Shown here: positions 40,774 through 64,000 of the stretch, piece by piece
How the letters are laid out: each line of letters begins with the position of its first letter
Position numbering within the stretch: the stretch's first letter is position 1
IMG/VR virus record: IMGVR_UViG_2852501635_000002
Span: 9,493 to 73,492 of that record
DNA length: 64,000 nucleotides
Source: a virus
Lineage: Duplodnaviria > Caudoviricetes
Strand: one strand, 5' to 3'
Notes under the pieces: generated by a model
Told to the model about the DNA's origin: nothing
Database searches by the model: none
Seen by the model: the letters and a program-made list of their open reading frames with translations, nothing else
Position numbers and translations under genes: made by a program

Positions 40774-40818
40774 CTTCTAAGCCGTAGGTCACAGGTTCGA
40801 ATCCTGTAGGGCGTACCA
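40774..40818 (+). repeat. 3' half of tRNA-Arg(UCU): prophage attR and probable satellite attL
   Basis: CTTCTAAGCCGTAGGTCACAGGTTCGAATCCTGTAGGGCGTACCA; anticodon loop, T arm and CCA present, 5' half absent. Confidence 0.88.
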
Positions 40819-40983
40819 TTCTCAAGTATTTTAACGTCTACAACAGTCCATAAAATCCTTATAAAATCAGCTATTACAAGAATTCCTAGTGTTTCAAGGT
40901 CTAGTTACGTCTATTGAAATCTACATATATGTGGGGGCATAATTGGGGGCATTATCCCGTTCAATGAAAATTGGTGCCCCCAG

Positions 40984-42195
40984 ATGAAGCTAACAGCCAG
41001 ACAAGTAGAGACTTCCAAGCCAAAAGAGAAAGCTTATAAACTTTCTGACGGAGGGGGCATGTATTTAGAAGTTGCTCCGAATGGTTCTAAGTATTGGCGT
41101 ATGAAATATAGATATGCTGGTAAAGAGAAAAGGCTGGCTTTAGGTGTATACCCATCAATATCACTCGCACAAGCTAGGGCGAAGAGAGAAGAAGCCAAGC
41201 GCATATTAGCGTTAGGTGATGATCCATCTTTAGTGAAGAAAGCAGAAAAGAGAGAGAAAGAATCTCAAGTAAATAATAGCTTTGAAAAAATTACGCTTGA
41301 ATGGCATGACTATAAAAAGCCGAATTGGTCAAAAGGTTATGCGGATGATTTACTAGAAGCCTTCCAGAAAGATATCTTTCCTTATATTGGTAAAGTTAGC
41401 ATTACAGAAATTAAACCGTTAGATATGTTAGAAGTGCTTCGGAAGTTAGAAAAACGCGGTGTGTTGGATAAGCTTAAAAAGATAAGGCAGGCATGTAACC
41501 AAGTATTCCGCTATGCAATTGTGACAGGACGGGCTGAGTATAATCCCGCATCAGAATTAGCCGGCGCACTGTCTACTCCAAAAGCTAAGCATTTTCCTCA
41601 CTTAAATGTGAATGAGTTACCTGAGTTTTTACAGGCACTATCTGTATGTAGTGGAAGTAAGATCACTCAGATTGCGACAAAGCTATTAATGATAACAGGC
41701 GTTCGTACTATTGAGCTTAGAGCTGCTGAATGGTCAGAAATTGATTTTGATAAAGCTATTTGGGAAATTCCAAAAGAACGTATGAAAATGCGTCGCCCTC
41801 ACATGGTGCCATTATCTACACAGGCCTTAGAATTATTCAAAGAAATACAAACCATAACAGGAAAGTTTAAGTATATCTTTCATGGTAGGAATGATGCTTC
41901 TAAACCAATGAGTGAAGCGGCCATAAATCAGGTTATCAAGCGTATTGGTTATGATGGTAGAGCCACAGGTCACGGATTCAGACATACAATGAGCACCATC
42001 CTGCACGAACAAGGCTATAACACTGCATGGATTGAGACTCAACTTGCACACGTTGATAAAAACTCTATTCGTGGAACGTATAACCATGCTCAGTATATTG
42101 ATGGCCGTAGAGAAATGCTTCAATGGTACGCTGATTATATGGATACTTTAGAGAGCGGGGATAATGTTGTCCACGGTAACTTTAAACGTGCTTAA
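40984..42195 (+). CDS. int: P4-family tyrosine integrase
   Basis: LSDGGGMYL, GVRTIELR, HGFRH, QLAH, YNHAQY. Confidence 0.96.
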   Translation: MKLTARQVETSKPKEKAYKLSDGGGMYLEVAPNGSKYWRMKYRYAGKEKRLALGVYPSISLAQARAKREEAKRILALGDDPSLVKKAEKREKESQVNNSFEKITLEWHDYKKPNWSKGYADDLLEAFQKDIFPYIGKVSITEIKPLDMLEVLRKLEKRGVLDKLKKIRQACNQVFRYAIVTGRAEYNPASELAGALSTPKAKHFPHLNVNELPEFLQALSVCSGSKITQIATKLLMITGVRTIELRAAEWSEIDFDKAIWEIPKERMKMRRPHMVPLSTQALELFKEIQTITGKFKYIFHGRNDASKPMSEAAINQVIKRIGYDGRATGHGFRHTMSTILHEQGYNTAWIETQLAHVDKNSIRGTYNHAQYIDGRREMLQWYADYMDTLESGDNVVHGNFKRA

Positions 42196-42411
42196 CCCAC
42201 CAGCAGACACATACAGAACCAGACAATAAAAGGTCTGGTTTTTTTGTACCGAGAAAGGGCATTAATAATATTTAATCATTAAATGTATGATGTGGCTGAA
42301 TTCTAACTAAGATGAGAAAAATCTTAATATACGCTTAAGAGTACACCCTAGTAGACGACAATAGACTATGCGAAGATGTGATAAATAAAACTGTTCGTTT
42401 CTTAAGCTTGA

Positions 42412-42427
42412 CTGTTCATTATTACAG
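42412..42427. promoter_or_regulatory. LexA (SOS) box between TTGACT and TATAAT hexamers
   Basis: CTGTTCATTATTACAG = CTG-N10-CAG. Confidence 0.6.
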
Positions 42428-42469
42428 TATAATATACCTAGTAGTACCGCAGTAGATCATTGTGGACTT

Positions 42470-43218
42470 CGCTCTTTAACACCTCTGCGCTGAAAAACGC
42501 GATATGTTCTTTAACAACGATGATGGCGAGCTGTGTGTTAGTCATCAGAACGGTGGCGCTGATAAAGCGACCAATGCTCTTTTACAAATTCGGGTATGCC
42601 CAGAGTAAATTCTCAGGGACAATCTGTCACGGTGGCGCTCTTGAAGCGCTGATATATGAATTTTTATCTGATTAGTAGCAGAACCAGCTTGTAACAAATA
42701 AGGAACGCTCAGAGCAATTTCTCCGAGCATATAAGTTTTATTGATAATCTTTATATTAGATTATCAGCTCTTTAAAATATGGATTCCCCCTTGGGTTGTC
42801 TTGAGGGGGCTAATGATAACCTCATTAGCATGTTGATGACTTCTCAACATAAATAATATTTGTAGCAAAATATGTACTGATAGCTACTTGTTCTTTAAAA
42901 ACTGACCTGCGCTCCTTGCAAATGGGAGCTTTTAGTAAACAACTTAATGATTTTGTTCTGTTTACTAAATATATGTAGTTCAGGTCGTTAATGGCAATCA
43001 GCTAAATTGAATAATATAATTGTAACTATTCAAATTAGTAAATTGTTCTTTGAAATTTAAGTCTCCGCCTTTGTGGAGTGTAGTTCTGTTCTTTAAAACT
43101 TATTTCGCTCCTGCATCAGGAGCAAAGCTCATATCTATATCAATGGAAATATTATCTTATCAAATATTCATTAATTATAGTTATGTTCTTTTCAAGGCTC
43201 TATGCACAGGCAGTGAGC
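42470..43218 (+). repeat. Array of boxA-like motifs each followed by hairpins (nut-like array)
   Basis: boxA-like 12-mers at 42470, 42505, 42575, 42766, 42889, 43044, 43087, 43184, plus a degenerate one at 42686. Confidence 0.7.
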
Positions 43219-43375
43219 ACAAATCAGTTTATTATTGAGATTGTTTTATTTTAAACAACAAGCCCCCACTCAAAAAACACCTTAAAATATAAACCATAAT
43301 ATGCGTTATTAACCTTATACATTTATGTATAGGGTTTTTTCGCATGTCTTTTCATATCACATTAAGGAAAATACT

Positions 43376-43573
43376 ATGAATAATCTGATTAGGCTTTCAG
43401 AGGTTTTGCGACGCACAGGTTACAGCAAAGCTTGGATTTATAGACTAATTAAAGAAAATGACTTTCCTAAACAAGTCAAAATAGGAGCTCGTTCTATTGC
43501 TTTTGTTGAATCAGAAGTAGATGAATGGATTGCTAATAAGATTGCTGAATCACGTTCTGGTGAGGTGGCATAA
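43376..43573 (+). CDS. alpA: AlpA-family regulator/excisionase
   Basis: LIRLSEVLRRTGYSKAWIYRLI..FPK.VKIG.RSIAFVESEVDEWI. Confidence 0.93.
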   Translation: MNNLIRLSEVLRRTGYSKAWIYRLIKENDFPKQVKIGARSIAFVESEVDEWIANKIAESRSGEVA

Positions 43574-43968
43574 TGAAAAAGAAAAACCACCCATCACAGG
43601 TGGCTTCTCAGAATAACGTAGCGTCGTCTATTCTATCAAAGAACCCACCTAAAAAACACCGTGCCCGTTTATATATGTTAGGTACTGGCATTAATGGCTT
43701 TACCGAGAATGAAATATTAATTCATTGCCGTTTATCGTCAGGCCGTAATTACCCAAATGAATTAGAGCGTTTATTGAATATCGAACTAGAACGCATTGAT
43801 GAGCCTAATCCTGATGGTATCGGATCACATTATCGTTACCGCTTTAAAACGGCTCAAGATGTGCAGAAGGTTATTAACTTAATAAATAAACGTGCTGAAC
43901 AAGGTAATTACCAACCCATAGATAACGCACTCATAAATAATATTTTAAGCCTGTACCCGACAAAATAA
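43573..43968 (+). CDS. Hypothetical satellite protein
   Basis: Coupled to alpA. Confidence 0.7.
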   Translation: MKKKNHPSQVASQNNVASSILSKNPPKKHRARLYMLGTGINGFTENEILIHCRLSSGRNYPNELERLLNIELERIDEPNPDGIGSHYRYRFKTAQDVQKVINLINKRAEQGNYQPIDNALINNILSLYPTK

Positions 43969-43980
43969 CGGAATAAAAAA

Positions 43981-44814
43981 ATGAAACTAAAAAATAACAG
44001 CTTAAATGCTGGTGGATTCGCTCACCCTGAAAACCACTCTAGCGATATTAAGGAATTATCTTTTGCTGAAATGCTGCCAGTAATTCAGGGAAATATTAAC
44101 GGGCAGATTATTAATGCAGTAAGTGCCAAAGCATTACACGAAGCATTAAGTGTAGGTCGTGATTTTTCTACTTGGATTATTGGCCGTGTTAATGAATACG
44201 CTTTTGTGGAAGGAACGGATTATCAATCAGATGATGACTTTAATATTCGCTGCTTACTTAATGAACAATATTCCCCCGTTTTGGGGAATAATACAAAACG
44301 TGGTCGCCCTGAAAAGGATTACTTATTAACGCTAGGCATGGCTAAAGAATTGGCAATGGTTGAACGTACCGAAAAAGGGCGCTTAATCCGGCAATACTTT
44401 ATCAAGTGTGAGGAAGCTCTACACAAAGTCGCGCCAACAATCACTAAGCAGTTACGGCATCAACTTAAATCACGCCTCAAAGTGGCTAGTTACTTTAAGC
44501 CGATGTGTTCAGCGTTAGAGCTAGCACGTATGGAGCAAGGCAAAAGCACACTACCGCACCACTACACAACTGAGTCAAACATGCTTAACCGAATTGTGTT
44601 AGGTGGACTCACTGCCAAAGCATGGGCGAAGCAGAACGGCATTATTGGCAATCCCCGTGATGCTATGAGCGAAACCCAATTAGAGCACCTTTCATACCTT
44701 GAGCAGACGAATACAACGCTAATTGAATTAGGCATGGACTATCACGCACGCAAGGACAAGTTAATCAGTCTATCTCAAAAGTGGTTAGCGCAACGTGTAG
44801 AGGTGGCGCAATGA
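43981..44814 (+). CDS. AntA/AntB antirepressor-family protein
   Basis: VSAKALHEAL.VGRDFSTWI, DYLLTLGMAKELAMVERTEKG..IRQYFI. Confidence 0.9.
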   Translation: MKLKNNSLNAGGFAHPENHSSDIKELSFAEMLPVIQGNINGQIINAVSAKALHEALSVGRDFSTWIIGRVNEYAFVEGTDYQSDDDFNIRCLLNEQYSPVLGNNTKRGRPEKDYLLTLGMAKELAMVERTEKGRLIRQYFIKCEEALHKVAPTITKQLRHQLKSRLKVASYFKPMCSALELARMEQGKSTLPHHYTTESNMLNRIVLGGLTAKAWAKQNGIIGNPRDAMSETQLEHLSYLEQTNTTLIELGMDYHARKDKLISLSQKWLAQRVEVAQ

Positions 44815-45536
44815 TTACCCTATGTTCAATAAAGGATATTGCCTACCAAGTGAATAATTCTCTACTGGCAGGTAATAACGTAAGTTCAACTTACACCACG
44901 ACTAATACGGTAGCTTTAAACTATGGTATTACGGGCAGTCAATCAGCGAAAATTTACGCCAATCAATCAATCCTAACCACCGTTGGAGGATGGGATAACA
45001 GCGATAACCTAAAACGTGGAGAATTTACACCATTTATTAAAGGTGATTTTTCTCACCTTTCTAAAGTCGGGAAATCTCGCTATTTATCGAGTGAAATTGA
45101 GTTTTTACAGTCCATAAAAAAGGGCGGCCAATCGGCTACCCTTGGGAACGTCGATATTAAATACCGAGCAAGTGAGAACTATAAGAATAGTATTCATCTT
45201 GTTATCGGTAAAGATGACAACCTTGAGTTAATACAAAAATGTGCAATACATCACTTGCACTTATGGGTAATTGTTGGCTATAGTGATCAGGCACTAGCAA
45301 AATCTAGTGTCAGGATTGGCGTTCTGAATTTGTACAAGGCGACACATGACGCGCCTAGCGTCTTTTTTTGTGTCAATGCCTACGCACACCTATTAAATGC
45401 GGTATTATATCGCACCGAATCTATGGTGGCGGCAGCAGAGCAACCGAAAGGTTGGCTGGTTTCCTTGTACGCCAGTAACGCCAACTCTACTGTCGTCACC
45501 ACCCCGAAATTGGCGTTTCTGGTGGTGACTCCTTAG
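44811..45536 (+). CDS. Ash-family ORF overlapping c4/CI RNA, with composite N-terminus
   Basis: GYS..ALAKSSVRIGVL, APSVFF, SMVA..EQPKG motifs. Confidence 0.7.
   Translation: MITLCSIKDIAYQVNNSLLAGNNVSSTYTTTNTVALNYGITGSQSAKIYANQSILTTVGGWDNSDNLKRGEFTPFIKGDFSHLSKVGKSRYLSSEIEFLQSIKKGGQSATLGNVDIKYRASENYKNSIHLVIGKDDNLELIQKCAIHHLHLWVIVGYSDQALAKSSVRIGVLNLYKATHDAPSVFFCVNAYAHLLNAVLYRTESMVAAAEQPKGWLVSLYASNANSTVVTTPKLAFLVVTP
45424..45501 (+). ncRNA. c4 / P4 CI-type antisense RNA
   Basis: Closing stem TGGTGGCGGCAG/CTGTCGTCACCA; loops CCTTGTAC (45463) and AACGCCAA (45477) complementary to GTACAAGG (45332, 45541) and TTGGCGTT (45316, 45510). Confidence 0.85.
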
Positions 45537-45559
45537 TATTGTACAAGGAGATCATCGTT

Positions 45560-45751
45560 ATGATGGCAACCCCTACCCAAACTCAATTCAAATTTTTGTT
45601 TCTGAGTATTAAACGTTCAGATACAACTGCTAAGCCTTGCCGTATCACTATTACCGCACCGAATGAACACGATGCAAGACTGATGCTTGTACGTGATTAT
45701 ATCCTGTCATTCGCTGGTCGCTTACCTGTTAAGGAGGTGGCTCATGCGTAA
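45560..45751 (+). CDS. Icd-like host cell division inhibitor
   Basis: FKFLFL...APNEHDAR..L...YILSFAGRLPV. Confidence 0.85.
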   Translation: MMATPTQTQFKFLFLSIKRSDTTAKPCRITITAPNEHDARLMLVRDYILSFAGRLPVKEVAHA

Positions 45752-45917: not shown

Positions 45918-45919
45918 TT

Positions 45920-46353: not shown

Positions 46354-46559
46354 AAACAATCAAATTAAATGTTGGTCACTTATCTACCTTGGAAGAAGTC
46401 GAACACATCAACGAAGAACTTCAAGCGTTGTTAATCCCGCTGTTAACAGCTGTAGAGAATGAAGCTGAGACGGATACGCATTTTATGCTGAGAGCAGTCA
46501 ACCGCTTAGTGTGTGCTCAAGGAAAAGAAATCACAAAGTTGGTGGAGGTGATGAAATGA
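46350..46559 (+). CDS. Hypothetical protein
   Basis: Coupled ORF. Confidence 0.65.
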   Translation: MKTIKLNVGHLSTLEEVEHINEELQALLIPLLTAVENEAETDTHFMLRAVNRLVCAQGKEITKLVEVMK

Positions 46560-47167
46560 GACAAGTCACTATCAATGCCACCAGCTTAAGTCCATTCATG
46601 TATCAAGGTAAGCGAGTTGTCACCTTTGCCATGATTGACGAGGTACACCAACGCCCAACAGGTGCGGCTAGAAAATCATTCAATGCTCACCGTCAATATT
46701 TTACTGAGGGTAAGGATTTTTACCGCCTAACTGGACAGGATTTAGAACTGTTTAAACTTTGCGCGTCCATAAAACGGACGCACAAATATTCACCCATTAG
46801 TGATAAAGCCCGAGAAGTAACACTGATTACTGAATCGGGATACTTGCTAACCGTGAAGCCATTTAATGATCCACTTTCTTGGCAGGTACAAAACCAGCTT
46901 ATCGATGCATATTTTCGACTGTCTGAATTCCCTGAATTACAGCACATCAACATACCCACACTGGCAGAACTTGAAGCCATGCCAATTGGTGAGGCTCAGA
47001 ACTTGATTAGCCGCTTAGAGGCTGATTCTTATCAAGGGCACGGTAGGCGTGGCAGCTATGCCATGAACCTACGTCGCAAAGAGAAGAAAGCACTTAAACC
47101 AATGGTAATCGCCATTGAGCAAGCCTCGCAGCTACACATTCAGGATATGGGAGATTATCGCTCATGA
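46556..47167 (+). CDS. ORF6N-domain protein
   Basis: YQGKRVVTFAMIDEVHQRP.G.A, LITESGYLLTVKPFND.LSWQVQ. Confidence 0.88.
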   Translation: MRQVTINATSLSPFMYQGKRVVTFAMIDEVHQRPTGAARKSFNAHRQYFTEGKDFYRLTGQDLELFKLCASIKRTHKYSPISDKAREVTLITESGYLLTVKPFNDPLSWQVQNQLIDAYFRLSEFPELQHINIPTLAELEAMPIGEAQNLISRLEADSYQGHGRRGSYAMNLRRKEKKALKPMVIAIEQASQLHIQDMGDYRS

Positions 47168-48127: not shown

Positions 48128-48141
48128 AAGGACGCAATGAC

Positions 48142-48486
48142 ATGATAACGAAGAATTTTAAAGTTAATTCACTAGCGAATAGCTACGCAGCTGCTATTTA
48201 CCACGATATTACCACACGTAATGGCGGTGATTGGTTTTCGATGAAGGTAGGCAACAAAACGATTGAAGTTGCCATTATTGACGGTGTGAAAGGTATTCGA
48301 ATGCTCGTTGATAGCTATTTGCTGAAAGCCTTAAAAGGGCAATATCCCACATGGGAGGCAGTTGCTATTGGCTTGATAGAGCAATGTGTCATTAATGGAT
48401 ATGTCACAGGTTATGGTCGAGAGGTGTGGCAAAGCATGATTAATGATATGGGCGACTCTTTCGCTGATAAGGGGGCGTTTCAATGA
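48142..48486 (+). CDS. Hypothetical protein
   Basis: ORF coupled to primase. Confidence 0.65.
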   Translation: MITKNFKVNSLANSYAAAIYHDITTRNGGDWFSMKVGNKTIEVAIIDGVKGIRMLVDSYLLKALKGQYPTWEAVAIGLIEQCVINGYVTGYGREVWQSMINDMGDSFADKGAFQ

Positions 48487-51203: not shown

Positions 51204-51236
51204 TTTCTTTCACGTCAGGAAAAAACGCTAATTATG

Positions 51237-51612
51237 GTTGTCTCAGTTGTCTCAATAAGAGAATAGAAAAGATAACTTATTAATATTTATAGTTATTATG
51301 ATTATTTTCTGAGACAACCCTGAGACAACATAAGCCCGTTTTGAGACAACCTAAGGCGTTTTTGAGACAACGCTGAAAAGTTTAGGTTAGCCCTTGGTTG
51401 GTTAAAAAAGTGGGTGAGACAACCGAATCAAAGGCTGAGACAACACGGTAATGAGAAAATAACCCTTAAAAATCAATTTATTGTAAAAATAAGGCGTGGG
51501 TAATCATGAGATTGAGACAACTCAAAATCATCAAGTTGTCTCAGAAAAAATATTTAATATAGCTTAATCAATAGGTTGTAAGTATTGAGACAACTGAGAC
51601 AACTGAGACAAC
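51237..51612. repeat. Replication origin: 13 TGAGACAAC iterons (10 direct, 3 inverted) plus IHF-like site
   Basis: Direct at 51310, 51321, 51342, 51363, 51415, 51436, 51513, 51586, 51595, 51604; inverted at 51237, 51246, 51535. Confidence 0.9.
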
Positions 51613-51658
51613 CCCTGATCGCGTATCTAATAAAAAGTTTTTTGAGGAAAAAGAAATA

Positions 51659-52113
51659 ATGGTCAGAGTGACTTTCTTATTAAGAAAAGATAACAATAAT
51701 GTAACCCCCCCCCACCAGCAACGAACACACCAAAAAGCGCACGGACTAAAAGGTCACAGGAAGCCTCAAAGCAATCGAAGAAGAAAAATAAGGCAGATGC
51801 TCACGCTAAAAAGAAACAATACCGTATCGACCGTATAGCGAAGCACTGGACGATATTTAATGAACCAGAGGCTAAACCACTGATGATAGGCATCAAGGAA
51901 GTCATGATTGCTGAGGTTAAAGATAAAGGGTTGGATATTCCAGAGAGCCATATTAAACAGGGATTACGATCATACATTAGTCGTAAAACCTATCTAAAAG
52001 CTCTTACTCTGGGCGGTAATCGTTTTGATATGAACGGGCGTCCTAAAGGAGAAATCACACCTCAACAACAAGCATTAGCAAAACAAATGCTGGTGGAATG
52101 GGCTAAAAAATAG
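51659..52113 (+). pseudogene. ProQ/FinO-domain gene frameshifted at a C9 tract
   Basis: KPLMIGI...LRSY.SRKTYLKAL..G..RFDMNG.PKGEIT; ATG 51659 joins this frame only with C10 or C7 at 51705-51713. Confidence 0.7.
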
Positions 52114-52187
52114 CAATGTAACAACCGCCAAAGCATAAACTGAGGTGATTATGTATAATTTGCCTTATCAACTAAAAGGATCACTAA

Positions 52188-52700: not shown

Positions 52701-52711
52701 GCTATACAAAC

Positions 52712-52735
52712 AAGCCGACCTTGAGTCGGTTTTTT
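52712..52735 (+). terminator. Intrinsic terminator
   Basis: AAGCCGAC-CTTGA-GTCGGTTTTTT. Confidence 0.7.
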
Positions 52736-52871
52736 GTTCTTATAGCCCCTATCATATTAATTTTTATAGAAATCTCCCTGTTTTATAGTCGTTTGTATTA
52801 ATCAATTATTGATTATTTTTTAATCCATTATATAATTGTATTGTATATAATTACAGGTTGGATAAATAAAC

Positions 52872-53045
52872 ATGAGTAAGCAAAAAAGAACCTTCAAGCC
52901 AGTGTCAATTGATAGTGAAATAATAGAACGCGTCAAAAAGTTTAAAGAAAAACAGGGTGAAAAAGATTTTTTCATTCAACGAGCACCTATTAGTCAATTA
53001 ATTCAAGGGTTACTAATTAATGCCTTACATAACGAGGGATTCTAA
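52872..53045 (+). CDS. Small RHH-like protein heading the tail operon
   Basis: Hand translation MSKQKRTFKPVSIDSEIIERVKKF...PISQLIQGLL. Confidence 0.6.
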   Translation: MSKQKRTFKPVSIDSEIIERVKKFKEKQGEKDFFIQRAPISQLIQGLLINALHNEGF

Positions 53046-53386
53046 TGGAAAAATTACAACGGTTAGCAAGCACTATAGCCCAGATTTATGTTGATAATTT
53101 AAAAGCTGAAACAGGAGAAACATTAGTAACTTATAACGGTATCACAGGTAAAGTTACCCCTGAATTACTGGCCGCTGGATTGTTTGATAATGCGGTATTT
53201 GCGGTTAAAGCGGATGGAGAAGAGATTGACGTTGAAGGTAAGGCGTATGATTTACTATCCCCGTTAATTAACTTATCAACAAAGCCTTACTCCCTAACGG
53301 GACAGGCATATAAATTGATTAATTTTCTCAATGTGCAGGCACTAAAAGCAGGAAGCACTTTATCAACCTTATCAGTTGTACATTAA
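53045..53386 (+). CDS. Hypothetical protein directly upstream of satellite TMP
   Basis: TAATG-coupled ORF; possible chaperone by position only. Confidence 0.65.
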   Translation: MEKLQRLASTIAQIYVDNLKAETGETLVTYNGITGKVTPELLAAGLFDNAVFAVKADGEEIDVEGKAYDLLSPLINLSTKPYSLTGQAYKLINFLNVQALKAGSTLSTLSVVH

Positions 53387-53402
53387 TCACAGGGAGAAAA
53401 TT

Positions 53403-56400: not shown

Positions 56401-56633
56401 AGTACATGATACCGGGTGATAATGGTCGAGTTATTAGCAATCGACAAATGGGTAAAGGTGGTAATGGTGTCAGCATGGGTGATATGAACTTTACATTCCA
56501 AGTTCAAGCACCTAATGGCATTACTCAAAAGGAGGCGCAACAAATACAGCAAATGGTGAGAGGTACGGTTTATGACGTACTTGGTAACGAAATGCGTAGC
56601 GGTGGTGCTTTGGAAAAAGTAAGAAGTTGGTAA
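53403..56633 (+). CDS. Satellite-encoded tape measure protein
   Basis: Ala-rich coiled coil, LLGGPTG, C-terminal blocks nearly identical to prophage TMP. Confidence 0.88.
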   Translation: MYHGEGYTVYVDADTAGLLEANREIEKARRKINDLGNEANTTSKSFTQFNKSAIAVSSALKMPEINRLSRQMSELAGQIGAASMATDKATTVNARFTGVISNVSGLLGAGYVSNIGSATVSLLQHTQGAINATQAEVLHTRAIQMKAQALQAAASQEVINAKNLKASTQAELKAAQAALEHVYSLEGSNDIKQRNLESLRARQAAVLKDAEITYQMTASEENLQRVTKASNALHATETKIKTHLATTGKEIALVEARVAKAKEAETLATQKLNAALALEQKAKATLATTTDAVTVANGRAAQAARSQSIAMQGLRGVVGLLGGPTGVFMLATAGVYALYNAMNDDTATKEFNDRVDQWIDKIDELSAKQARAVANRLGEKIAETTTQLEGQKKSLSSVNSDLKRYENRLADINKEIQRQKEQGFEVGKSYVQDDIVKEIEKLTKKQQQYELIISEGEQNIRRWTVSQGKAANIAKERAKQTDELSRAELIYQRQAKGIVDANQQLARSLELGSDAAVKKEQAIKELEKALIADGFVKDSELFKQKIQELTDELDKKASLNLANSLAEIEQRTQALTIGMKDGKPALDEYNASLLLMQMGIKKGSATYNTELPKAIEAIRNLREAQEAALNSKSNANKSLKAINKANDAIKKQQQQTETLRKEFELLSSGAANVNREMAIFNAVQSLGADATDKQKKAIAKEVAEVFDLKQKVDDFIKSQEITPELKLARAFRQESEELKRMFDNDFIDEETFKALGNKAMKAFDAGMAEIKINAVIDPITEAKGQYDPIQALANEHAKKLEMIRQFETEKGAITQRGLELMNAANTQYEQDRLNAQWEIWRNQSQANQFLADGLDALGQRSTNVLTGLLTQTQSINDAFRNVALTIVDQAVGALVQMGMQQVKNMIMGESMATAAQASALAQAAAAQAAWAPAALSASIATLGAAVATGTSSYTAAMAASKTMGLVAGARKNGGPVNAGSMYRVGEGGKPEIFKASNGSQYMIPGDNGRVISNRQMGKGGNGVSMGDMNFTFQVQAPNGITQKEAQQIQQMVRGTVYDVLGNEMRSGGALEKVRSW

Positions 56634-56699: not shown

Positions 56700-57068
56700 A
56701 TGATAAAGATAAAAGTATCTAAAAGGAAAGGTCGCAATCAATCATTTCTACAATATTGCCAGCATGTAGATCAACGAGTATCACGGGCTATGCAACGGTT
56801 TCTTTTCGATGCTGGAGCACAATCCGCAATTTATACGCCTATCGATACATCAACATTGATTAATAGTCAGTTTAGGGATGTTACTGTTAATGGTACAAAA
56901 ATAACGGGACGTATTGGTTACTCCGCCAGCTATGCCGTTTATGTGCATGATCCGAAAGTTAAGCAGAAATTTAAACGACCAACAGCTAAAAAAGAGTTCT
57001 TGAAAAAAGCGGTCGAGGAAACGCTACCTAATTTAACTAAGTATATTCATGAAGAATTGAAGAGTTAG
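56700..57068 (+). CDS. HK97 gp10-like neck/tail-completion protein (homolog of 23558-23929)
   Basis: YTPIDTSTLINSQFR..TGRIGYSA.YAVYVHDP.VKQKF.R.TAKKEFLK shared with prophage gene. Confidence 0.88.
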   Translation: MIKIKVSKRKGRNQSFLQYCQHVDQRVSRAMQRFLFDAGAQSAIYTPIDTSTLINSQFRDVTVNGTKITGRIGYSASYAVYVHDPKVKQKFKRPTAKKEFLKKAVEETLPNLTKYIHEELKS

Positions 57069-57075
57069 CCTTCAT

Positions 57076-57095
57076 ACTTTCGTGAACAGTACGCG
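57076..57095 (+). promoter_or_regulatory. Putative pac-site mimic
   Basis: 20/20 identity to terS 16005-16024. Confidence 0.65.
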
Positions 57096-57433
57096 CGTGG
57101 AAGGAAATATGCAAAAAACAACCAAAAAGAAACCAACCATTATTTTTATGATGTACCGACAATGCGCCTAATTGTGACGTGTGAACAATCCATCAACATT
57201 CACATAAGAGCCGATAGAGTAACAGGGGCAATCATGAGGAGTTTGTGAGGCAAGCAATCATTGAGAAGCTAAAAAAAAGCAACAGCACAAATAGCTAAAT
57301 CGCTATATGTATGTGTCAATAACTTGGTTATAGCTATATATATTGTGTTTACGTTAAAAAAATAGACAGGTAATTACAAGCTCATAATGATTAGCCCCTA
57401 GACAAGATAAATATATTCAGTATTATTTATCCC

Positions 57434-57500
57434 AACAGTGCCCCTCATAACCTCTACGTAGAACGGAGAAATCTGGTTTGCGATACGTTTGGGGCTTTCT
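57434..57500 (+). ncRNA. Candidate RNA antitoxin upstream of Abi gene
   Basis: Nested stems, TAGACA-16-TATTAT promoter at 57399-57426, T-rich tail. Confidence 0.6.
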
Positions 57501-57533
57501 TTTATCTACTATCTGATAATTTTCCATGCTGCT

Positions 57534-58529
57534 ATGCACCCTCTAAAACCTCATCTAACGTATTTTGACCAAATAAAAAAGCTAGAAAAACGAGGAATGA
57601 GTTTTGAGGATCTACCTCCTGAGCAGGCGGTAAAGAAAATAATGAATATTGGATATTACAGGCTATCTGGGTATTGGTATCCATTCCGTAAGTTAAAGTT
57701 AATCCCACCAGTAGCACCCGATGAAGCCAGACGTGAAGAAACATTCCTTGAGGGTACAACCTTTACAACGGTATACGCACACTATTTATTTGATGTAAAA
57801 CTAAGAAGTTCTATTTTTTATGGAATAGAACGAATTGAAACTTATCTTAAAGCAAAAATAGCTTACGAACTAGGTAAAGTATCCCCTACGGCATACAAAG
57901 ATAAGAATATCATCCAATACAGACATCACTACCGACATGATACATGGCTAGAAAAGTTAGATTCTTTAATAGAGCGAAATAGTGATAAAGATTGTATACG
58001 ATGGAATTTAGATAAGTATGGGGATATTCCTATATGGGCTATCGTTGATATTTGGGATTTCGGTACAATGTCTCGCTTCTACGGAATGCTTGAAGATAAA
58101 TACAAACATCAAATTTGTAAATCGCTTGGCTTTCTAAAGCCTAACTCAGCAAATGTAAGAGATGGACTGAAAACAGCATTAGAGCACCTTAATACAGTTA
58201 GAAACAGGTGTGCCCACCATGCGCGTTTATGGAATACCGATTTTTCAGACTCAAAAATTAGCATCGATGTGTTAGATAATATTGATTTAACAGCCTCGCG
58301 CTTGTCTCCAAAAAGCCCTGAACTATCAAGAATGGCAGGTATCATATTTTTAATATGGAGTCTGACCAAGAGAATAAGTTGTAATTCTACATGGCTAAGT
58401 TCAGTAAATGATCATTTAGAAAAACATCAGGGCGTTATTCCGTTTAATTCAATGGGATTCGATAATAACAATATCTCAGGATTAAAAAATCTATTGGATA
58501 AGGAAAAAGAACAATCAGCCCAATCATAA
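57534..58529 (+). CDS. Abi_2 (AbiD/AbiF) HEPN abortive infection protein
   Basis: IGYYRLSGY, IERIE, PIWAIVDIWDFG, RNRCAHH (RxxxxH). Confidence 0.92.
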   Translation: MHPLKPHLTYFDQIKKLEKRGMSFEDLPPEQAVKKIMNIGYYRLSGYWYPFRKLKLIPPVAPDEARREETFLEGTTFTTVYAHYLFDVKLRSSIFYGIERIETYLKAKIAYELGKVSPTAYKDKNIIQYRHHYRHDTWLEKLDSLIERNSDKDCIRWNLDKYGDIPIWAIVDIWDFGTMSRFYGMLEDKYKHQICKSLGFLKPNSANVRDGLKTALEHLNTVRNRCAHHARLWNTDFSDSKISIDVLDNIDLTASRLSPKSPELSRMAGIIFLIWSLTKRISCNSTWLSSVNDHLEKHQGVIPFNSMGFDNNNISGLKNLLDKEKEQSAQS

Positions 58530-58810
58530 GCCAACCCAAATCAAATAAACTTTAATGATTTTCAGGCGCGCTAGCAATAAGTTTTCGGACACGTTAGAAA
58601 GGTTGTAAATAGAGGCTGATAGCGACAAATATAGACATTAAATCCTAACAAATCCTAACGTTTTTCTAATACCTAGATCCTAAGTTTTCTTAAGGTAAAT
58701 TGCGCATTCAATGCTAAGATTTGCTAAGGTTTTACTATCCACTTAGTATTATGATTAGATAGCTGATAACTTCAGTATATGTTGGGAGTAGCTGTAATGA
58801 TAAAACTAAT

Positions 58811-59482
58811 TTGAGAATAGAAATGCTAATAAATAAATTAAAAAATAAAAATGAGTCACCAGAAGACATTATAGAGAATTTGATATATGCCTATCAAAAC
58901 TCAAGAGAAACATATGTTGAAAACAAGAGAGTGTTTCGTGGGCGTAGTCATTCTGTCTCGGGTATTTTTGAAGATCTATTTGCTGATTATTTATCAAAAA
59001 ATTTACCTGATAGTAATCAATATTTCGTAGACCAGCAGTTGTTTTCATCAGCAGCAAATATACGATTTTTCCCAGATATATTAATTATGAATGATAAAAT
59101 AAATCGCGATATCATAGACTTAAAGCTTGATTTTGGATGGTCTAGAAATGATGTTTTTTCATTTTGTGATACGTGGAATAAAAAAATAGATAAGTTAAAA
59201 GGAACGAGTTTCACTTTCAATGATGGGATAACTAAAGAAAAAAAGAATGGTTTTTTTTCTGATAATTTAAAATATCATGTAGTAGTTTCGACAAAATTAA
59301 ATAATGGAAGTAATTTTATTGAAATAAAAGATAAAGTGACAAAAAATTTGGAGCATGTTGAGTTATATATACTCACTGACAAGGTACATCCGAATGATTA
59401 CAATAGCACTGCCGAAGAACGGGTAAAAAATATACATATATGCATGAGTGAATTTTCAAGGTTAATGAATAATTTATCATAA
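58811..59482 (+). CDS. Hypothetical protein, possible PD-(D/E)xK nuclease
   Basis: FEDLFA...FPDILI...IIDLKLD; very AT-rich. Confidence 0.55.
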   Translation: MRIEMLINKLKNKNESPEDIIENLIYAYQNSRETYVENKRVFRGRSHSVSGIFEDLFADYLSKNLPDSNQYFVDQQLFSSAANIRFFPDILIMNDKINRDIIDLKLDFGWSRNDVFSFCDTWNKKIDKLKGTSFTFNDGITKEKKNGFFSDNLKYHVVVSTKLNNGSNFIEIKDKVTKNLEHVELYILTDKVHPNDYNSTAEERVKNIHICMSEFSRLMNNLS

Positions 59483-59594
59483 TAATATAATTCTTTTAGT
59501 TCTTAACGGACAAAAATATAGTTTAAATTGTCCGTTATTATAGATAGCAAAATTCGGTGATAACAAATTTTATACGTTAAAATCAATAGTTGCT

Positions 59595-60023
59595 TTAGTC
59601 CTGCAAATAATTCAATTTATTTACTATATTCTTGTGACGCCTCCATGCAGAATAGATATCTTTATCCCACGCTTTACCTGCCTTAGTTTGATAGCCTGCC
59701 TCATTAATCCGTTTAGCAATAATGCGCCCATTGGCTACACCCTCAGACAGTACAGAATTAACCACAGAAATGACAGCAGACTCATTATAGGTATAAGGTG
59801 GGATATCTGCCTTGCCAGCAATTAAAGATGCGAAAGACGATTCTAGGCGTTCCACCAGCGACAGTATGCGAGCGTCAGGATTACTGTCTGGGCGGTTTAG
59901 CTTCTCCTTGATAGCAGAGACTATCCATGCTGTTTTATCGCTACCAGAGTTCGATGCAGCATCATTAAACAGGGTTTGTAGTTCAGCAGGGAGACGAAAG
60001 GCAATAAGATTAGATTTACTTAT
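59595..60023 (-). CDS. RHH-like protein with recombinase-type DNA-binding tail; apparent start codon is ATA
   Basis: Open frame from ATA 60023: SKSNLIAFRLPAELQ...IAKRINEAGYQTKAGKAW. Confidence 0.55.
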   Translation of the reverse strand: MSKSNLIAFRLPAELQTLFNDAASNSGSDKTAWIVSAIKEKLNRPDSNPDARILSLVERLESSFASLIAGKADIPPYTYNESAVISVVNSVLSEGVANGRIIAKRINEAGYQTKAGKAWDKDIYSAWRRHKNIVNKLNYLQD

Positions 60024-60833
60024 GATAATAGTCCGTTATTAACTCAGTGAGCGCTTATTATATCAGCGTATAACACTGTTATACAGATTAGAAAATATAT
60101 CATTGCTAGTGGATTTAATGAATAAGTCCATAACTTAAAGTTAGAGTAACCTACTGTAAAACAAGCAAAGCGTATTCTTGCGCCTTGTAACGGATTGAAT
60201 ACATAGCAAAGCTCAAAAATGAGTGCTGTACTGTGGTGATTATCGCCATAGTCGGAAAGGGTAACAGTTGAAATGCTACCCTTGGTATCAAAACCACAAA
60301 TTAGTGATTTTAGCTAAAGTAGCTAAATATTAGCCAATACAGCTAACCACATAAACATAGTGGTACTATGATGATCCGTTGACTTTCAAACGTGAGGTAT
60401 CCACTAAGGTATCCACCGAAAAGGCTATATTTTACTGGATACTTTACCCACTAAATGTTGACAATTGTTAACATCAGAACCAGACAAAACCTGACATCAT
60501 TTACTTATTTTAGGTACGCAATAAATACGTATTTAATTCTCGCAATTCACTATAATTAAATAAAATCATGGTATTACATAAAGGTATGCAGAATAGTGCG
60601 CATTGAAATGATATTATTCGCATCGGTAACTATTTGATTATCCCGAGGCCGTCACTTTGGGGCGTACTGAAATAGCGTATTTCAATCTGCTAACGTGGTT
60701 GCCATTTTGATGGTTGCCACTTTGGTTGCCAGCAAAACGGCATATTTTACGCTAGTGGATTGATAACCTTTGATTGTTCCAATTCAGCACAATCAAGGTA
60801 TGGCGGAAATAACCACTCCTTTGAGGTATAGCC

Positions 60834-61022
60834 ATGTTACAACGAGAAACAATAGAAGCCGTTATGATGGAGTTAGCCCACCAGCAAGGGCATTCACTCA
60901 ATGGGCGTGATCGATTAGCGATTAGAACAGGTGTAGCACAGACAATGCAGGCTAAAGAACGTCACAGACGAAGAATGACAGCACCTACCTACCAATGGAC
61001 GAAGCCAGCACCAAAAAGATAA
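60834..61022 (+). CDS. Small hypothetical protein inside the site array
   Basis: RBS GAGGT, 62 aa. Confidence 0.6.
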   Translation: MLQRETIEAVMMELAHQQGHSLNGRDRLAIRTGVAQTMQAKERHRRRMTAPTYQWTKPAPKR

Positions 61023-61547
61023 TAGGTCGCCTTGAAATTAAGGGGACGTGAGGCTCTGAAATCGGAGGCTCGTCACTGGCTGGCAATATTCCAATAATGG
61101 CTACGAGGTAAAAGTAACCACAATGCAAATAAGCACTCTGGATAAATATCAATAAGTTATCTATGCTGAGAGATAAGATTACAACAAAGAGCGACGGCAA
61201 GATTACGGCAAGGTATTAACAATCAGGTTTCAGTCGGTCAATTTGACCGTTAGCAATAAAAACAATGTGTTGCCAACTCTTACCATTGGTCACTGAAACG
61301 ATGACCAATGAGCGTTAATCTGGTTTTGTTACAGAATTAAGTATTATCAATCAGTTGTATTTTGATTCCGTCGATTTACCGGAATTAAGTATAATCAACA
61401 GGTTATATCTACATACGGGATAATCCCGTATCATCATGGATAAATTAACGTTTAGATCACCCCTAGAAATTGGAATTATTACCTATACAACCTGAATCCT
61501 ACCAGTGTTTTATTTTAACCAATAGCTTATATTGTGATGGTATCAAG

Positions 61548-61835
61548 ATGAATAAACCAAAAATGAGAAAAGCAAAATCAATCAGGATCACCACATCAGG
61601 AACGGTAATCAAAGCACCTGAGCGAGTTAAAACAGCCACAGGTAAAGTTATGGCCACAATGACTATTCAGGCTGAGAGTGACAAGCGTAGCCCGTACCCA
61701 TTAAAGATAGTGGCATTCGATATTAACGCGCTGGAGCTAATGACCTGCCAGAAAGGAAACAAAGTAACTGCTACAGGTCGCTATGAATGGTTTAATGGTT
61801 ATCAGCTAACAGGGGCGCAGATAGTTGCTGGTTAG
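61548..61835 (+). CDS. OB-fold ssDNA-binding-like protein
   Basis: SGTVIKAPE, IVAF..AL, KGNKVTATGR. Confidence 0.6.
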   Translation: MNKPKMRKAKSIRITTSGTVIKAPERVKTATGKVMATMTIQAESDKRSPYPLKIVAFDINALELMTCQKGNKVTATGRYEWFNGYQLTGAQIVAG

Positions 61836-62146
61836 TAAAACTTAGTATCAATAGTTACATTAGGCTACTGGCCTACTTATACGCTTGACGTTAATGTTAT
61901 ATAAATTAATTTCTATAAGTCCGAATTGAGCATGGTTAAATGTACGCTAAAGTTAGTTGTATCAAAACTTACATGATGAATGAGATAAAAATATCCAGCA
62001 ACTATAGGTAACTATATAAGATGTTTTTGTTGGTCTAATGGCATATTTTCTCTGTATTTATTCGCTTCTGGCATTTTAGCCTTATAGGTTAGATTCAATG
62101 TGGGTCGATAGACTTGCTTGGATAACAACCTAAGAGAAAGCTTAAA

Positions 62147-62332
62147 ATGAATGATACAGATTTAATACTAGAAACTGATGTTTACAAATGGTTAGGACTG
62201 AAGCGTACGGCATTATGGCGACTAAAAAAGAAGCATGAATTTCCTCTCCCTGTTTTATACCGACCAGCAAAATATCGTAAATCATTAATTCAAAAGTGGC
62301 TTGATGATGGCGGGGTGAATAGAAAAAAATGA
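62147..62332 (+). CDS. AlpA/excisionase-like HTH protein
   Basis: VYKWLGLKRTALWRLKK..EFPLP...KW. Confidence 0.75.
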   Translation: MNDTDLILETDVYKWLGLKRTALWRLKKKHEFPLPVLYRPAKYRKSLIQKWLDDGGVNRKK

Positions 62333-62423
62333 ACACAGATTGAATCATACTCTCAGAATTTATAATTTAGTTGAGCTACCCTGAAAAATTCGAGGTAGTT
62401 CTCACTAATCAAAGAGGATGGTT

Positions 62424-62722
62424 ATGGAAGATGATTCACTTTTCATGGTAAAGGAATATGCAGCACTGCTTAAGCTTCTGAGTCGACTGTTTATAGAAAC
62501 CCAGCTAAGTATCATATGTTCCGTGTTGGCAGGTCATGGCGCGCCAGTAAAGAAAGCTTGAAACGATTTGAACAAGCTCAATTTGATAACAATCGCGATT
62601 ACCCAGCTGTCTTAACCCATAAAAGACAAAAAAAGGCTGATTATAAGAATAAATATGAGATTAGGATGCAAAGTGATGTGGCAAAAGAATTAGATAGGCT
62701 GTTATTTAAAGATACTAAATAA
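62424..62722 (+). pseudogene. Excisionase-like HTH gene with 1-nt frameshift near 62472
   Basis: MEDDSLFMVKEYAALLK joins ASESTVYRNPAKYHMFRVGRSWR in another frame. Confidence 0.6.
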
Positions 62723-62887
62723 AAATCAATTCCACGGGCAGCTGGTTAAATAACCATGTAACGATACTTAAGTTATATCGTTATGATGGAATATTAAGTA
62801 TACATAATAATAAAGTTGTATTTTATAGTTTTTGTAATCAATAGATAAAGATTAAACAGACTAGGGAATATTTTATGTAACCAAGTA

Positions 62888-64000
62888 ATGGAGATTAAAA
62901 TGAGTATAGTTTATGTGCCATGCATAAAAAACGGGATGAATGATATAAAGGCTTTATTAAATTTAAAGGAAGAGTCATCAGGTTATGTCATGCCTCTAGT
63001 GTTAACAGCAGGAACGCCTTATGGAGGGAATGGTGTAGATTTAAAAAAAGACTACTTACTAGATGAGTTTATACATAATTGGGATAAGCCATTCATTGTA
63101 GATGCCTCTAGGGCTGATTCAGATAGTGAGTCACTTTATAATTCCTACCACAACCTGACATCACAGCACGACAATTTTTCGGGTAAAATCACTTACTATT
63201 CAAGTATATATTCAATAAATAAAAAATTAATTCCAGCTATAAGTTGGCAGCTAAATGATGATATGAGAAATATTGTTCAACTCTCTCTGTATTTAGAGCA
63301 GCAATATGAAAAAATAGCAATAATCATTGATCCTAATAATAGTGAGAATTTAAATAGATTAGATACGTTGCTTTGTTTGTTTAAAGATAACTCAAGAATT
63401 ATTGTATTGCTTAATTATAATTCTATATATAACAAAGAATTACCTCAAGAGCATAAAGTTTTACCAGTGATTAGTAAATTAACCTCGCGTGGAGTGGGGA
63501 GTATAGTATTACTAAGTTCTTCATTCCCTCCAGTAAAACCTGCAATAAAAGATACATGGATACAGTCAGAGAACACTGATCTACTGTGGCAACTAACAAT
63601 GATGAATAAGTCACCCAGAGATAGCGTTATCTTATATGGTGATTATTCAGCCACATCACCTAATTCAGCAACAGAATATATACAAGGGATGCAAATAATT
63701 CCAAGTGTGACTTATTTTAGAGGCGGTATTTGGTATCAAATAAAATCAGGTGTAGACAAAGAATTTTCAAAATATAAAGACATAGCAAACGAACTAATCA
63801 GATTGGATTTCTTTCATGGCTCAACATTTTGTTGGGGTGCTGAAAATATTTATGATATTGCAACCAATAGAGACAGGAAAGGAGGCACCCCAGGAACATG
63901 GAATGGGTATAAAATTAATGTTCATGTAGAGGAAACGATCAGAATTTTAAAAGACTATTACAGTACTCCACTTGAAAATTACGATGAAGATAGTGAATAG
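62888..64000 (+). CDS. Beta-family protein (T4 beta-like)
   Basis: YVPCIK...AL, SSSFP, YGDY, W...H pattern. Confidence 0.7.
   Translation: MEIKMSIVYVPCIKNGMNDIKALLNLKEESSGYVMPLVLTAGTPYGGNGVDLKKDYLLDEFIHNWDKPFIVDASRADSDSESLYNSYHNLTSQHDNFSGKITYYSSIYSINKKLIPAISWQLNDDMRNIVQLSLYLEQQYEKIAIIIDPNNSENLNRLDTLLCLFKDNSRIIVLLNYNSIYNKELPQEHKVLPVISKLTSRGVGSIVLLSSSFPPVKPAIKDTWIQSENTDLLWQLTMMNKSPRDSVILYGDYSATSPNSATEYIQGMQIIPSVTYFRGGIWYQIKSGVDKEFSKYKDIANELIRLDFFHGSTFCWGAENIYDIATNRDRKGGTPGTWNGYKINVHVEETIRILKDYYSTPLENYDEDSE

Follow-up and report, generated by a model that had tools for sequence, protein, structure and literature searches.

Phage-inducible chromosomal islands (PICIs) of Gram-negative bacteria have been divided into four zones, named Integration, Bro, Replication and Late, according to the accessible text of Tommasini, Mageeney & Williams 2023 (PMC10111431). 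For Vibrio cholerae, the accessible sections of a second report describe experiments in which the PICI-like elements (PLEs) PLE1, PLE4 and PLE11 form chimeric tails with their own tape measure protein (TMP), tail assembly chaperone (TAC) and baseplate hub, and the legend to its Extended Data Fig. 10 names putative tmp genes in PLE-like elements and in capsid-forming PICIs (cf-PICIs; PMC12987554). As late as December 2025, a preprint described TMPs as unusual among satellites (PMC12822802). The Pseudomonas satellite phiAH14b (16.8 kb) has int, AlpA, Rha and primase genes and uses the capsids of siphophage phiAH14a, as stated in the available part of a paper that also quotes some of the gene content of satellite phage P4 (PMC4936722). 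Here we analyse a 64,000-nt stretch of viral DNA (the window), comprising bases 9493–73492 of a single 73,492-bp IMG/VR record that is classed as a provirus and ends where the contig ends, in which a PICI-type satellite appears to lie beside a prophage.

The left 40 kb of the window is a lambdoid siphophage prophage of the pac (headful-packaging) type and of helper type. To its right, 40.77–64.0 kb probably represents most of a Gram-negative PICI-type satellite, which to judge from its sequence would sit in tandem with the prophage at the 3′ end of a tRNA-Arg gene. The visible satellite is at least 23 kb long and its right end lies past the contig. Its genes are laid out in four zones (int and alpA; antirepressor genes with the isrK and C4 RNAs; primase and iteron origin; a late zone), and a defence hotspot (AbiD, Beta) follows the late zone. 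GC content is approximately 33–45% throughout the window, and the nearest named matches are Proteus and Providencia phages and one Proteus mirabilis chromosome.

The tRNA-Arg fragment between the two elements has counterparts in many phage records, in tRNA-Arg features and at phage ends; no complete tRNA was found by ARAGORN anywhere on the contig. A 98% match to Proteus phage vB_BPM-V3 over the 66 bp on its left marks the fragment as the right junction of the prophage, and the satellite integrase gene starts 160 bp to its right. In relatives, a 21–22-bp repeat of the 3′ part of tRNA-Arg lies approximately 20 kb rightward; in two contigs (G001 and G003) the repeat is found 19.8 and 20.7 kb from the left junction and bounds the element. 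A point against the assignment is that attR of this copy falls beyond the contig end, so that only the left junction is present.

Among the scanned open reading frames (ORFs) of the visible 23 kb, neither Pfam nor PHROGs revealed a capsid, portal, terminase, lysis, sid, psu or delta family. This agrees with an earlier note on the same DNA, made from the letters alone, which had described a satellite with no capsid or terminase gene; the satellite assignment itself is supported by layout and family relations. The same note had stated that no terminase-redirecting gene is present. None was recognised, but such a protein may still be encoded, because 11 of the 20 small or unassigned ORFs that were scanned match no PHROG family.

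Satellite family and tail cassettes

As the earlier note had recognised, the satellite carries a TMP of its own, and this is a genuine phage-type protein (Table 1). It is 42% identical to the TMP of the neighbouring prophage over 419 aa. Along its entire length it shows 60% identity to the TMP of a prophage with a lambda-type tail in P. mirabilis H63, and the last (3′) 1.3 kb of the gene shows 97.8% DNA identity to the H63 TMP gene. The satellite TMP has 1085 aa and that of the neighbouring prophage 1130 aa; at approximately 0.15 nm of tail per residue, tails built with the satellite TMP would be predicted to be about 7 nm shorter. The tail-completion protein encoded behind it is 59% identical to the product of prophage gene 23558–23929. 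No hub gene was found in the satellite. The ORF ahead of the TMP gene matches phrog_19131, a family of unknown function, and ORFs at the same place in two relatives match Phage_TAC_4 (L010) and Phage_TAC_9 (L006). Weighing against a chaperone role is that the ORF of the window is assigned by position, so we call it putative; a single-sequence AlphaFold model (mean pLDDT 46) was too poor for use, and searches of PDB sequences and of the protein atlas gave nothing usable.

A primase-based scan of IMG/VR yielded 22 loci. The backbone of the window is common to nine of them, with integrases 92–100% identical in the eight that cover the int region (L005 begins at the primase). The TMP cassette of the window recurs in five (L004, L005, L009, L015 and L017) at 92–98% identity, with a tail-completion protein that is 100% identical. 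In two others (L010 and L022) the TMP is of lambda type (TMP_2, phrog_24), with a Phage_TAC_4 ORF ahead of it and a lipoprotein gene behind it; L006 has a TMP of phrog_9388/8125 between a Phage_TAC_9 ORF and a DUF7424 lipoprotein; and L007 has a phrog_2276 TMP with a transglycosylase-like part. A single satellite backbone therefore carries, at one locus, chaperone and TMP cassettes of four unrelated families. None of the 13 remaining loci, whose primases are 45–66% identical, has a TMP resembling that of the window. Seven ORFs from four of these distant loci (L025, L011, L013 and L016) were scanned and encode capsid, portal or TerL proteins, making these loci cf-PICI-like. Since loci with primases 45–57% identical (L011–L025) carry such genes, the replication module serves both cf-PICI-like and TMP-type islands.

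Several further observations concern these cassettes. Each TMP cassette type is accompanied by a different lipoprotein gene (52188–52700 in the window, 17284–17772 in L010 and 16552–17277 in L006); that of L006 matches DUF7424, whereas those of the window and of L010 match no family in the scans. Possible roles are superinfection exclusion or a tail-related function. The lambda-type TMP frame of L022 (14595–17240) is 881 codons long, compared with 1002 codons in L010, and there is a gap of 350 bp behind the chaperone ORF; this TMP gene may be disrupted in its 5′ part. Contigs from a wastewater metatranscriptome break at 55821–55850, where the TMP genes of satellite and prophage enter a 73-bp stretch of 98.6% identity; this is consistent with a stretch common to several genomes in that sample.

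The region might also be a decaying prophage remnant, or a defence island fused to a P4-like integrase module, in which the TMP is a dead relic. The contig was called as one provirus, capsid, terminase and lysis genes are missing, and the ProQ/FinO-like backbone gene looks split in this copy. However, intact ORFs are present for the TMP (1085 aa), the tail-completion protein, the primase, int and alpA; at least nine IMG/VR contigs have this backbone, with four different intact TMP cassettes; and att repeats stand approximately 20 kb apart in relatives. In addition, all sampled words of 52–62 kb occur in each of 14 DNA runs from eight studies, which are not all independent because each was flagged as a possible source of this DNA. 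In other sequencing runs, one had the stretch as a single contig and two had no reads on it. We consider a relic very improbable and retain the satellite assignment.

Short sequences shared with the prophage

A blastn comparison of 40774–64000 with 1–40773 at word size 7 returned 26 matches at E ≤ 10, six of them at E < 1e-3. Coding matches lie in the TMP genes (55821–55893 with 33312–33384, 98.6%; 56299–56380 with 33820–33901, 85%) and in the tail-completion genes (56914–56971 with 23775–23832, 86%). The non-coding matches comprise a 20/20 identity between 57076–57095 and 16005–16024, inside the Sf6-type small terminase gene (terS); a 36/36 identity between 61117–61152 and 11575–11540 in inverted orientation, 42/44 when extended; and a 70/72 match between 57429–57500 and 11435–11506, downstream of the antiterminator gene Q, which is 66/67 over 57433–57499.

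The earlier note had interpreted such matches as part of something much larger. In its view approximately 3 kb of non-coding or loosely coding satellite DNA is packed with 15–40-bp units, several of them with near-exact counterparts in the prophage, that collect sites for the antiterminators, small terminases and antirepressor-type proteins of many phages, giving the island a broad helper range or a means of titration. We compared five non-coding zones totalling 3,270 nt with the prophage at word size 9, alongside 40 dinucleotide shuffles; the zones include 57069–57488, 58530–58810 and 60043–61469 and differ slightly from the limits used earlier. The best match per shuffle averaged 29.5 bits and reached 36.2 bits at the highest, and only three real matches (103, 71.9 and 40.1 bits) exceeded this value, so that the zones are not packed with shared units. 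The prophage counterparts that the note had listed hold for terS (20/20) and for the 36/36 and 66/67 matches ascribed to the late leader, but not for rha, where a 23/27 unit had been reported: the best match there is 16/17 (42930–42946 with 15149–15133, 26.3 bits), which is at chance level. Short matches (13–14-mers) are mildly in excess (13 versus 6.6 ± 2.2 at 26 bits or more; 41 versus 23.1 ± 5.4 at 24 bits or more), which is weak evidence because the shuffles do not preserve shared oligonucleotide usage.

A wider comparison was made by blastn at word size 11 with a database of 50,697 phage records. The region 57000–61900 was matched by five phage records at two places only. For 42150–45600, the 30 rows listed from 41 records all fall in the antA coding sequence or in the isrK/C4 locus, and 51150–53100 gave one 30-bp match (E = 4e-3) to two entries of a single Acholeplasma phage. 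Four of the zones that had been described as unit-rich (42.47–43.22, 44.84–45.23, 58.58–58.73 and 60.1–61.1 kb) had no phage match among those listed; the first of them covers the int–alpA control region. The supposed antirepressor-class sites thus reduce to antA coding homology and to the known c4/isrK immunity RNA locus.

In favour of a site collection, three non-coding units match phage DNA far above chance, two of them in plausible cis contexts (the terS interior and the late-operon leader), the short matches mildly exceed the shuffles, and a palindrome at 61284–61310 recurs within the Bro-N antirepressor-type genes of three unrelated IMG/VR phages. Instead of many sites of several classes from many phages, however, 3.3 kb holds three real matches, each single-copy and all to one phage lineage. 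In related satellites the 20-mer and the 44-mer belong to the backbone, whereas the late leader is linked to AbiD cargo and is absent from five of nine backbone loci (L005, L006, L007, L010 and L017). The shuffle and database controls largely refute the idea of a site collection, and we regard it as extremely improbable. The other stretches that had seemed rich in units are the island's own control DNA, namely an 11-bp motif array, the immunity RNA locus, the origin and the hotspot linkers.

What survives of that proposal is that the satellite holds cis-type DNA in common with the neighbouring prophage, in the form of the terS-internal 20-mer and the late-operon leader. In all, five sequence links tie the satellite to this type of prophage: the terS 20-mer, the C-terminus of the TMP, the tail-completion gene, the late leader and the 44-mer. 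Judged by sequence, the short pieces are footprints of a helper–satellite relationship and not a site library. Weighing against the neighbour as the helper, the satellite TMP resembles the TMP of the adjacent prophage only in the window and in none of four other contigs (G001–G004); adjacency alone therefore does not identify the helper. Co-variation of the satellite TMP with the TMP of the neighbouring prophage was likewise considered and failed in all four. The H63 prophage, which has the closest TMP, lacks the 20-mer and has an unrelated terS, though it has the late leader. As these phages are mosaic, helper range cannot be read from adjacency.

The 20-mer forms the first 20 bp of a 23-bp island and corresponds to codons 55–61 (DFREQYA) of the helper-type terS. 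It occurs 22 times in IMG/VR, 13 times inside Sf6-type terS genes and nine times in this satellite family, and the full 23 bp are exact in all ten satellites that carry the island (nine from IMG/VR plus the window). The flanks in these satellites take three forms on the left, one per TMP cassette, and two on the right; one wastewater contig parts from the sequence of the window exactly after 57095. A linker equivalent to 58576–58696 lies no more than 45 bp past the island in L005 and L017, which indicates that the AbiD cassette was inserted between island and linker in the lineage of the window. Satellites carrying helper packaging sites are known. Sites for pac within terS genes are established for P22, and pac recognition by such terminases was described as unresolved, in the accessible text of a 2022 review (PMC9611059). 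With these precedents, the simplest functional reading is that the 23-bp island could be a pac signal that lets an Sf6-type TerS pick up the satellite, an assignment that we advance tentatively.

The case for a pac signal is indirect, and two observations weaken it. Synonymous-site codon identity at the 20-mer is only modestly raised (0.71 in the seven-codon window versus a median of 0.52). The sequence is exact in 13 of 14 terS genes of 84–99% identity, with 19/20 in the other, and absent from terS genes that are 63–71% identical, so that a special constraint on it is not supported.

A 22-base core of the leader unit was found in 60 IMG/VR stretches; four are satellites, in all of which the AbiD start lies approximately 35 nt after the unit, and 56 are phage stretches (L167–L222). 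The copy in the prophage of the window spans 11436–11506. A Q-like gene lies upstream of the unit in all 50 stretches that extend at least 448 bp in that direction (six were too short to judge), ending 135–462 bp away in 47 stretches and 822–1770 bp away in three. Among cultured phages the unit is present in four, ahead of holin or lysis genes in each; three of these have it downstream of an annotated antiterminator gene, and in the fourth, PSTNGR2lys, the corresponding place is taken by an ORF without annotation. An alignment of 49 sequences is gapless, with a mean column identity of 87% and 45 invariant columns, and the flanks are much less conserved.

This conservation is accompanied by a hairpin. 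In the alignment, 98.9% of cells are paired, 19 of 44 distinct sequences show a switch of two adjacent pairs from AU/CG to GC/UA, and changes at four further pairs are to G–U only. No Rfam family was found for the unit. The hairpin (approximately 70 nt, behind the Q genes of dozens of Morganellaceae phages and before lysis genes) is a candidate for a new phage late-operon RNA family, and the unit has the appearance of a conserved late-operon element, either a terminator or a leader. Against an RNA family, one event may account for both compensatory pairs, and the hairpin does not fold with unusual energy (z = −1.0). The unit is unlikely to be the Q-binding site itself because in phages a separate terminator precedes it and the upstream DNA is not conserved; it also occurs with at least three Q types.

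In the satellite, a promoter-like sequence (TAGACA-16-TATTAT, 57399–57426) lies just upstream of the leader unit. Within the family, the unit was found only in members with this AbiD allele (L004, L009, L015, L022 and the window) and is therefore cargo, not backbone. The hairpin may tie AbiD expression to the signal that opens the phage late operon, a reading that we hold loosely. AbiD need not depend on Q, as the upstream promoter-like region of the satellite copy differs from that of the phages. In the cultured-phage collection no phage combines Q, leader and AbiD; no AbiD homologue above 31% identity was found in cultured phages, and none in enterobacterial phages.

The third unit, a 44-mer at 61117–61160, is conserved backbone in eight family loci. 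Its prophage counterpart forms the 3′ end of an ORF of 56 codons on the minus strand, which immediately follows the leader unit both there and in Proteus phages Brookers and BPM-V3. Of this ORF the satellite retains no more than a fragment that terminates at a stop codon. Farther along, 61232–61432 matches Providencia phage PSTCR7lys between its lysis and terminase-region genes. This match led us to consider a cos site at 61.2–61.45 kb, which was not adopted: in the related IMG/VR phage L144 an HNH-like ORF (identified by eye) and a presumed terS lie approximately 1 kb further on, and the core palindrome also occurs within Bro-N genes of other phages without wider similarity. The palindrome, CATTGGTCA-N9-TGACCAATG (27 bp), is non-coding in the satellites and in PSTCR7lys. 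In L140, L141 and L147 it forms part of the Bro-N coding sequence (...LVIESVTNG...), with no similarity past approximately 30 bp.

All three pieces might instead be neutral recombination scars with no function in the satellite, the 20-mer left by a lost terS, the 44-mer by a small gene, and the leader being the upstream DNA of a moron. Capture of late genes followed by their loss is the published model for the PICI late zone, in the accessible text of PMC10111431. The 44-mer has the form expected of such a fragment, the 20-mer shows no excess synonymous constraint, and no other part of the terS region is common to satellite and prophage. On the other hand, the 23-bp island is exact in ten of ten satellites despite repeated replacement of both flanks, events that should have removed a neutral 20-bp remnant, and the leader unit is far more conserved than its flanks. 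We therefore consider scars a somewhat unlikely explanation for the shared pieces, and continue with the footprint reading.

A possible course of events can be outlined. On derepression, Ant-type proteins might switch on the resident helper; the island would then excise, replicate from its own origin and be packaged into helper capsids. By analogy with the Vibrio PLEs, tails may be built with the TMP, chaperone and tail-completion protein of the island in place of those of the helper. The TMP and tail-completion matches would represent captured or recombined late genes, the 20-mer a backbone island copied from the interior of a helper terS, and the hairpin a piece that arrived with the AbiD cassette. 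Combining a terS-derived pac signal, AbiD gated by a borrowed late-operon leader RNA and TMP cassettes swapped among four families, the satellite would be a modular tail-and-signal hijacker without a packaging protein of its own. That all of these parts hold together is unlikely. If they do, the AbiD suicide defence would be made only after an infecting phage opens its late operon.

Gene layout and neighbouring features

Table 1. Features of the satellite and of the prophage to its left (window positions).
Feature	Position	Strand	Remarks
S24 repressor	2185–2901		prophage
Q antiterminator	10669–11172		prophage; PF06530
Rha	14510–15196		prophage
Sf6-type small terminase (terS)	15842–16282		prophage
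TerL, portal, tail tube and tail terminator genes			prophage
TMP of prophage	30771–34163		prophage
Tail spike	38004–40304		prophage
tRNA-Arg 3′ fragment	40766–40824	+	anticodon loop to CCA; junction of prophage right end and satellite left end (att core)
Tyrosine integrase	40984–42195	+	inward-reading; Arm-DNA-bind_3, Phage_int_M and Phage_integrase domains
int–alpA control region	42471–43098	+	six same-strand copies of GYTCTTTRAMA
AlpA-family regulator	43325–43573	+	PF05930, E = 7e-21
AntA/AntB antirepressor-family protein	43981–44814	+
Immunity RNA locus	45278–45506	+	c4-a1b1 target, isrK, C4 antisense RNA (Rfam)
ORF6N-domain protein	46511–47167	+	Bro/Ant network
Primase-helicase	48483–51203	+	Zn_Ribbon_Prim, Toprim_3, DUF927
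Iteron origin	51236–51613		13 copies of TGAGACAAC, both orientations
Lipoprotein-like ORF	52188–52700	+	head of tail cassette; signal peptide and Cys, read from sequence
Putative tail assembly chaperone	53045–53386	+	position only; 113 aa, overlaps TMP start
Tail tape measure protein (TMP)	53376–56633	+	1085 aa; phrog_1107, E = 2.7e-131
Tail completion/Neck1-type protein	56700–57068	+	phrog_5
23-bp conserved island	57076–57098	+	candidate pac-site mimic
Late-operon leader unit	57434–57499	+	hairpin 57440–57495, then U-rich run
AbiD/Abi_2 abortive-infection gene	57534–58529	+	cargo; Pfam Abi_2 E = 1.8e-50, PADLOC AbiD E = 7.4e-58
Conserved linker between cargo slots	58576–58696	+	backbone
Conserved right backbone	59626–61469	+	ORFs 59812–60042 and 60834–61022; 44-bp piece 61117–61160
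Weak SSB-like ORF	61470–61835	+	Pfam SSB E = 0.0019, under curated cut-off; tblastn matches family-wide
Beta-protein defence gene	62888–64000	+	P4 gop-beta-cII/PD-Lambda-2_C type; truncated by contig end

The motif array between int and alpA contains all four exact matches to GYTCTTTRAMA in the window. Of the 14 matches in the window, seven cluster at 42471–43259, including a reverse-strand copy with one mismatch at 43249, and the array looks like the island's own operator or arm-site array. In the antirepressor zone, a conserved 131-aa ORF precedes AntA, whose C-terminal half is 35% identical to a Rha-family protein of the H63 prophage; that protein is in turn 98% identical to Rha of the prophage in the window. 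The immunity transcript has its leader at 44.84–45.23 kb, directly ahead of c4-a1b1, isrK and C4. Scores of isrK (RF01394; 65.7 bits versus a gathering score of 50) and C4 (RF01695; 71.2 versus 45) are above threshold, and that of c4-a1b1 (39 bits) is under its gathering score of 46.7. A small repressor-like ORF follows the RNA locus, ahead of the ORF6N protein. A match to the Pfam 'Ash protein family' (residues 167–243 of the 251-codon ORF 44781–45536) nearly coincides with the isrK and C4 genes (45291–45506); this ORF probably encodes no protein here, and part of the Pfam family may consist of translated RNA genes.

Two conserved ORFs of unknown function separate the ORF6N gene from the primase-helicase gene. 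At the origin, the 13 copies of TGAGACAAC compare with 0.47 expected, and none of 100 shuffles reached 13. A ProQ/FinO-family ORF (51659–52113) comes after the origin; it is a single ORF of 145 codons in L010 (13068–13505) and two ORFs (59 and 76 codons) in the window, perhaps owing to a frameshift. In the hotspot, the Abi_2 domain of AbiD scores 172 bits against a Pfam cut-off of 25.6, from which an abortive-infection role is predicted, and a 223-aa ORF of unknown type follows. Eleven loci were compared at the linker 58576–58696, which is present in all ten family loci that reach the region, regardless of cargo, and is retained in a wastewater variant without AbiD. The motif TTTTCGGRCACGTTA occurs twice in L005 (8750–8830), directly after the 23-bp island and again approximately 45 bp on; in the window, where the motif lies at 58576–58600, the AbiD cassette takes the place of the first copy. 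This motif may mark the cargo insertion points of the hotspot.

The right backbone contains two copies of ACGGCAAG at 61194–61212, a 27-nt direct repeat at 61334 and 61382, and palindromes at 61235–61249, 61284–61310 and 61413–61431. At the opposite side of the satellite, a gene resembling that for the theta subunit of DNA polymerase III (HolE) at 40369–40683 (minus strand) falls between the tail spike gene and the att junction, and thus inside the prophage. Homologues lie at equivalent positions in L004, L007, L010 and L022. The gene is reminiscent of the hot gene of phage P1.

Comparison with known satellites

The element is of a known kind. Satellite phage P4 has sid, psu and delta among its characteristic features. 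Like P4, the satellite combines a tRNA-site integrase, an alpA-like gene (orf88 in P4), a primase-helicase with iterons, immunity RNA of the C4/CI clan and a Beta-type gene; unlike P4, it has no sid, psu or delta in the scanned ORFs, and its helper type is lambdoid and not P2. PICIs of the EcCICFT073 type are reportedly the subject of work by Fillol-Salom and colleagues from 2018. In place of a terS, SaPIbov5-type islands are said to bear copies of the packaging sites of their helpers. Should the 23-bp island prove to be a pac signal, the present satellite would resemble them in placing a helper cis site on an island without a terminase, with the difference that the putative site is a 20-bp identity with the interior of an Sf6-type terS. 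Unlike cf-PICIs, the visible part has no capsid, portal or terminase genes of its own.

Closer counterparts share more of the plan. With phiAH14b the satellite has in common a P4-like int/alpA/primase core without sid or psu, a Rha/Ant-type gene and a resident siphophage helper, but for phiAH14b the available part of the source mentions a TMP only in the helper (PMC4936722). With Gram-negative PICIs, as described in the accessible text of PMC10111431, it shares an inward-reading int with alpA, a Bro/Ant zone with C4 and isrK, a primase with an origin, a late zone containing nucleotide-level captures from helper prophages, and a fixed integration site. It differs from them in that its late zone is limited to tail-interior genes, lacks genes for capsid or packaging and leads into a defence hotspot, in its Morganellaceae host and tRNA-Arg site, and in that no cos site or Rpp-like gene was identified.

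Both satellite-encoded TMPs (PMC12987554) and late-gene capture (PMC10111431) have already been published, as the accessible parts of these papers show. The present lineage was not described in the literature searched, and the supplements to these two papers may already contain TMP-only PICI late zones. Our results remove an attractive but unsupported idea of a site library and point to a PICI lineage in Proteus-like bacteria with a late zone made up of an exchangeable chaperone and TMP cassette. Whether a 20-bp terS-internal sequence suffices for packaging bears on pac recognition by Sf6-type terminases, and the leader–AbiD junction raises the matter of Abi gene control by a phage late-operon leader.

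The PLEs offer the nearest parallel to the tail cassette. As in PLEs, described in the accessible sections of PMC12987554, a satellite TMP gene stands beside a gene at the chaperone position, and the arrangement implies tails in which helper tube and tip proteins are combined with the satellite's own ruler. The backbone, in contrast, is unrelated, the helper would be a temperate siphophage and not a lytic myophage, and the present system is known from sequence. No hub gene and no recognisable Rta was found here, and four unrelated TMP families occupy one locus. The satellite would thus extend the strategy of satellite-built tails to capsid-less PICIs of temperate siphophages.

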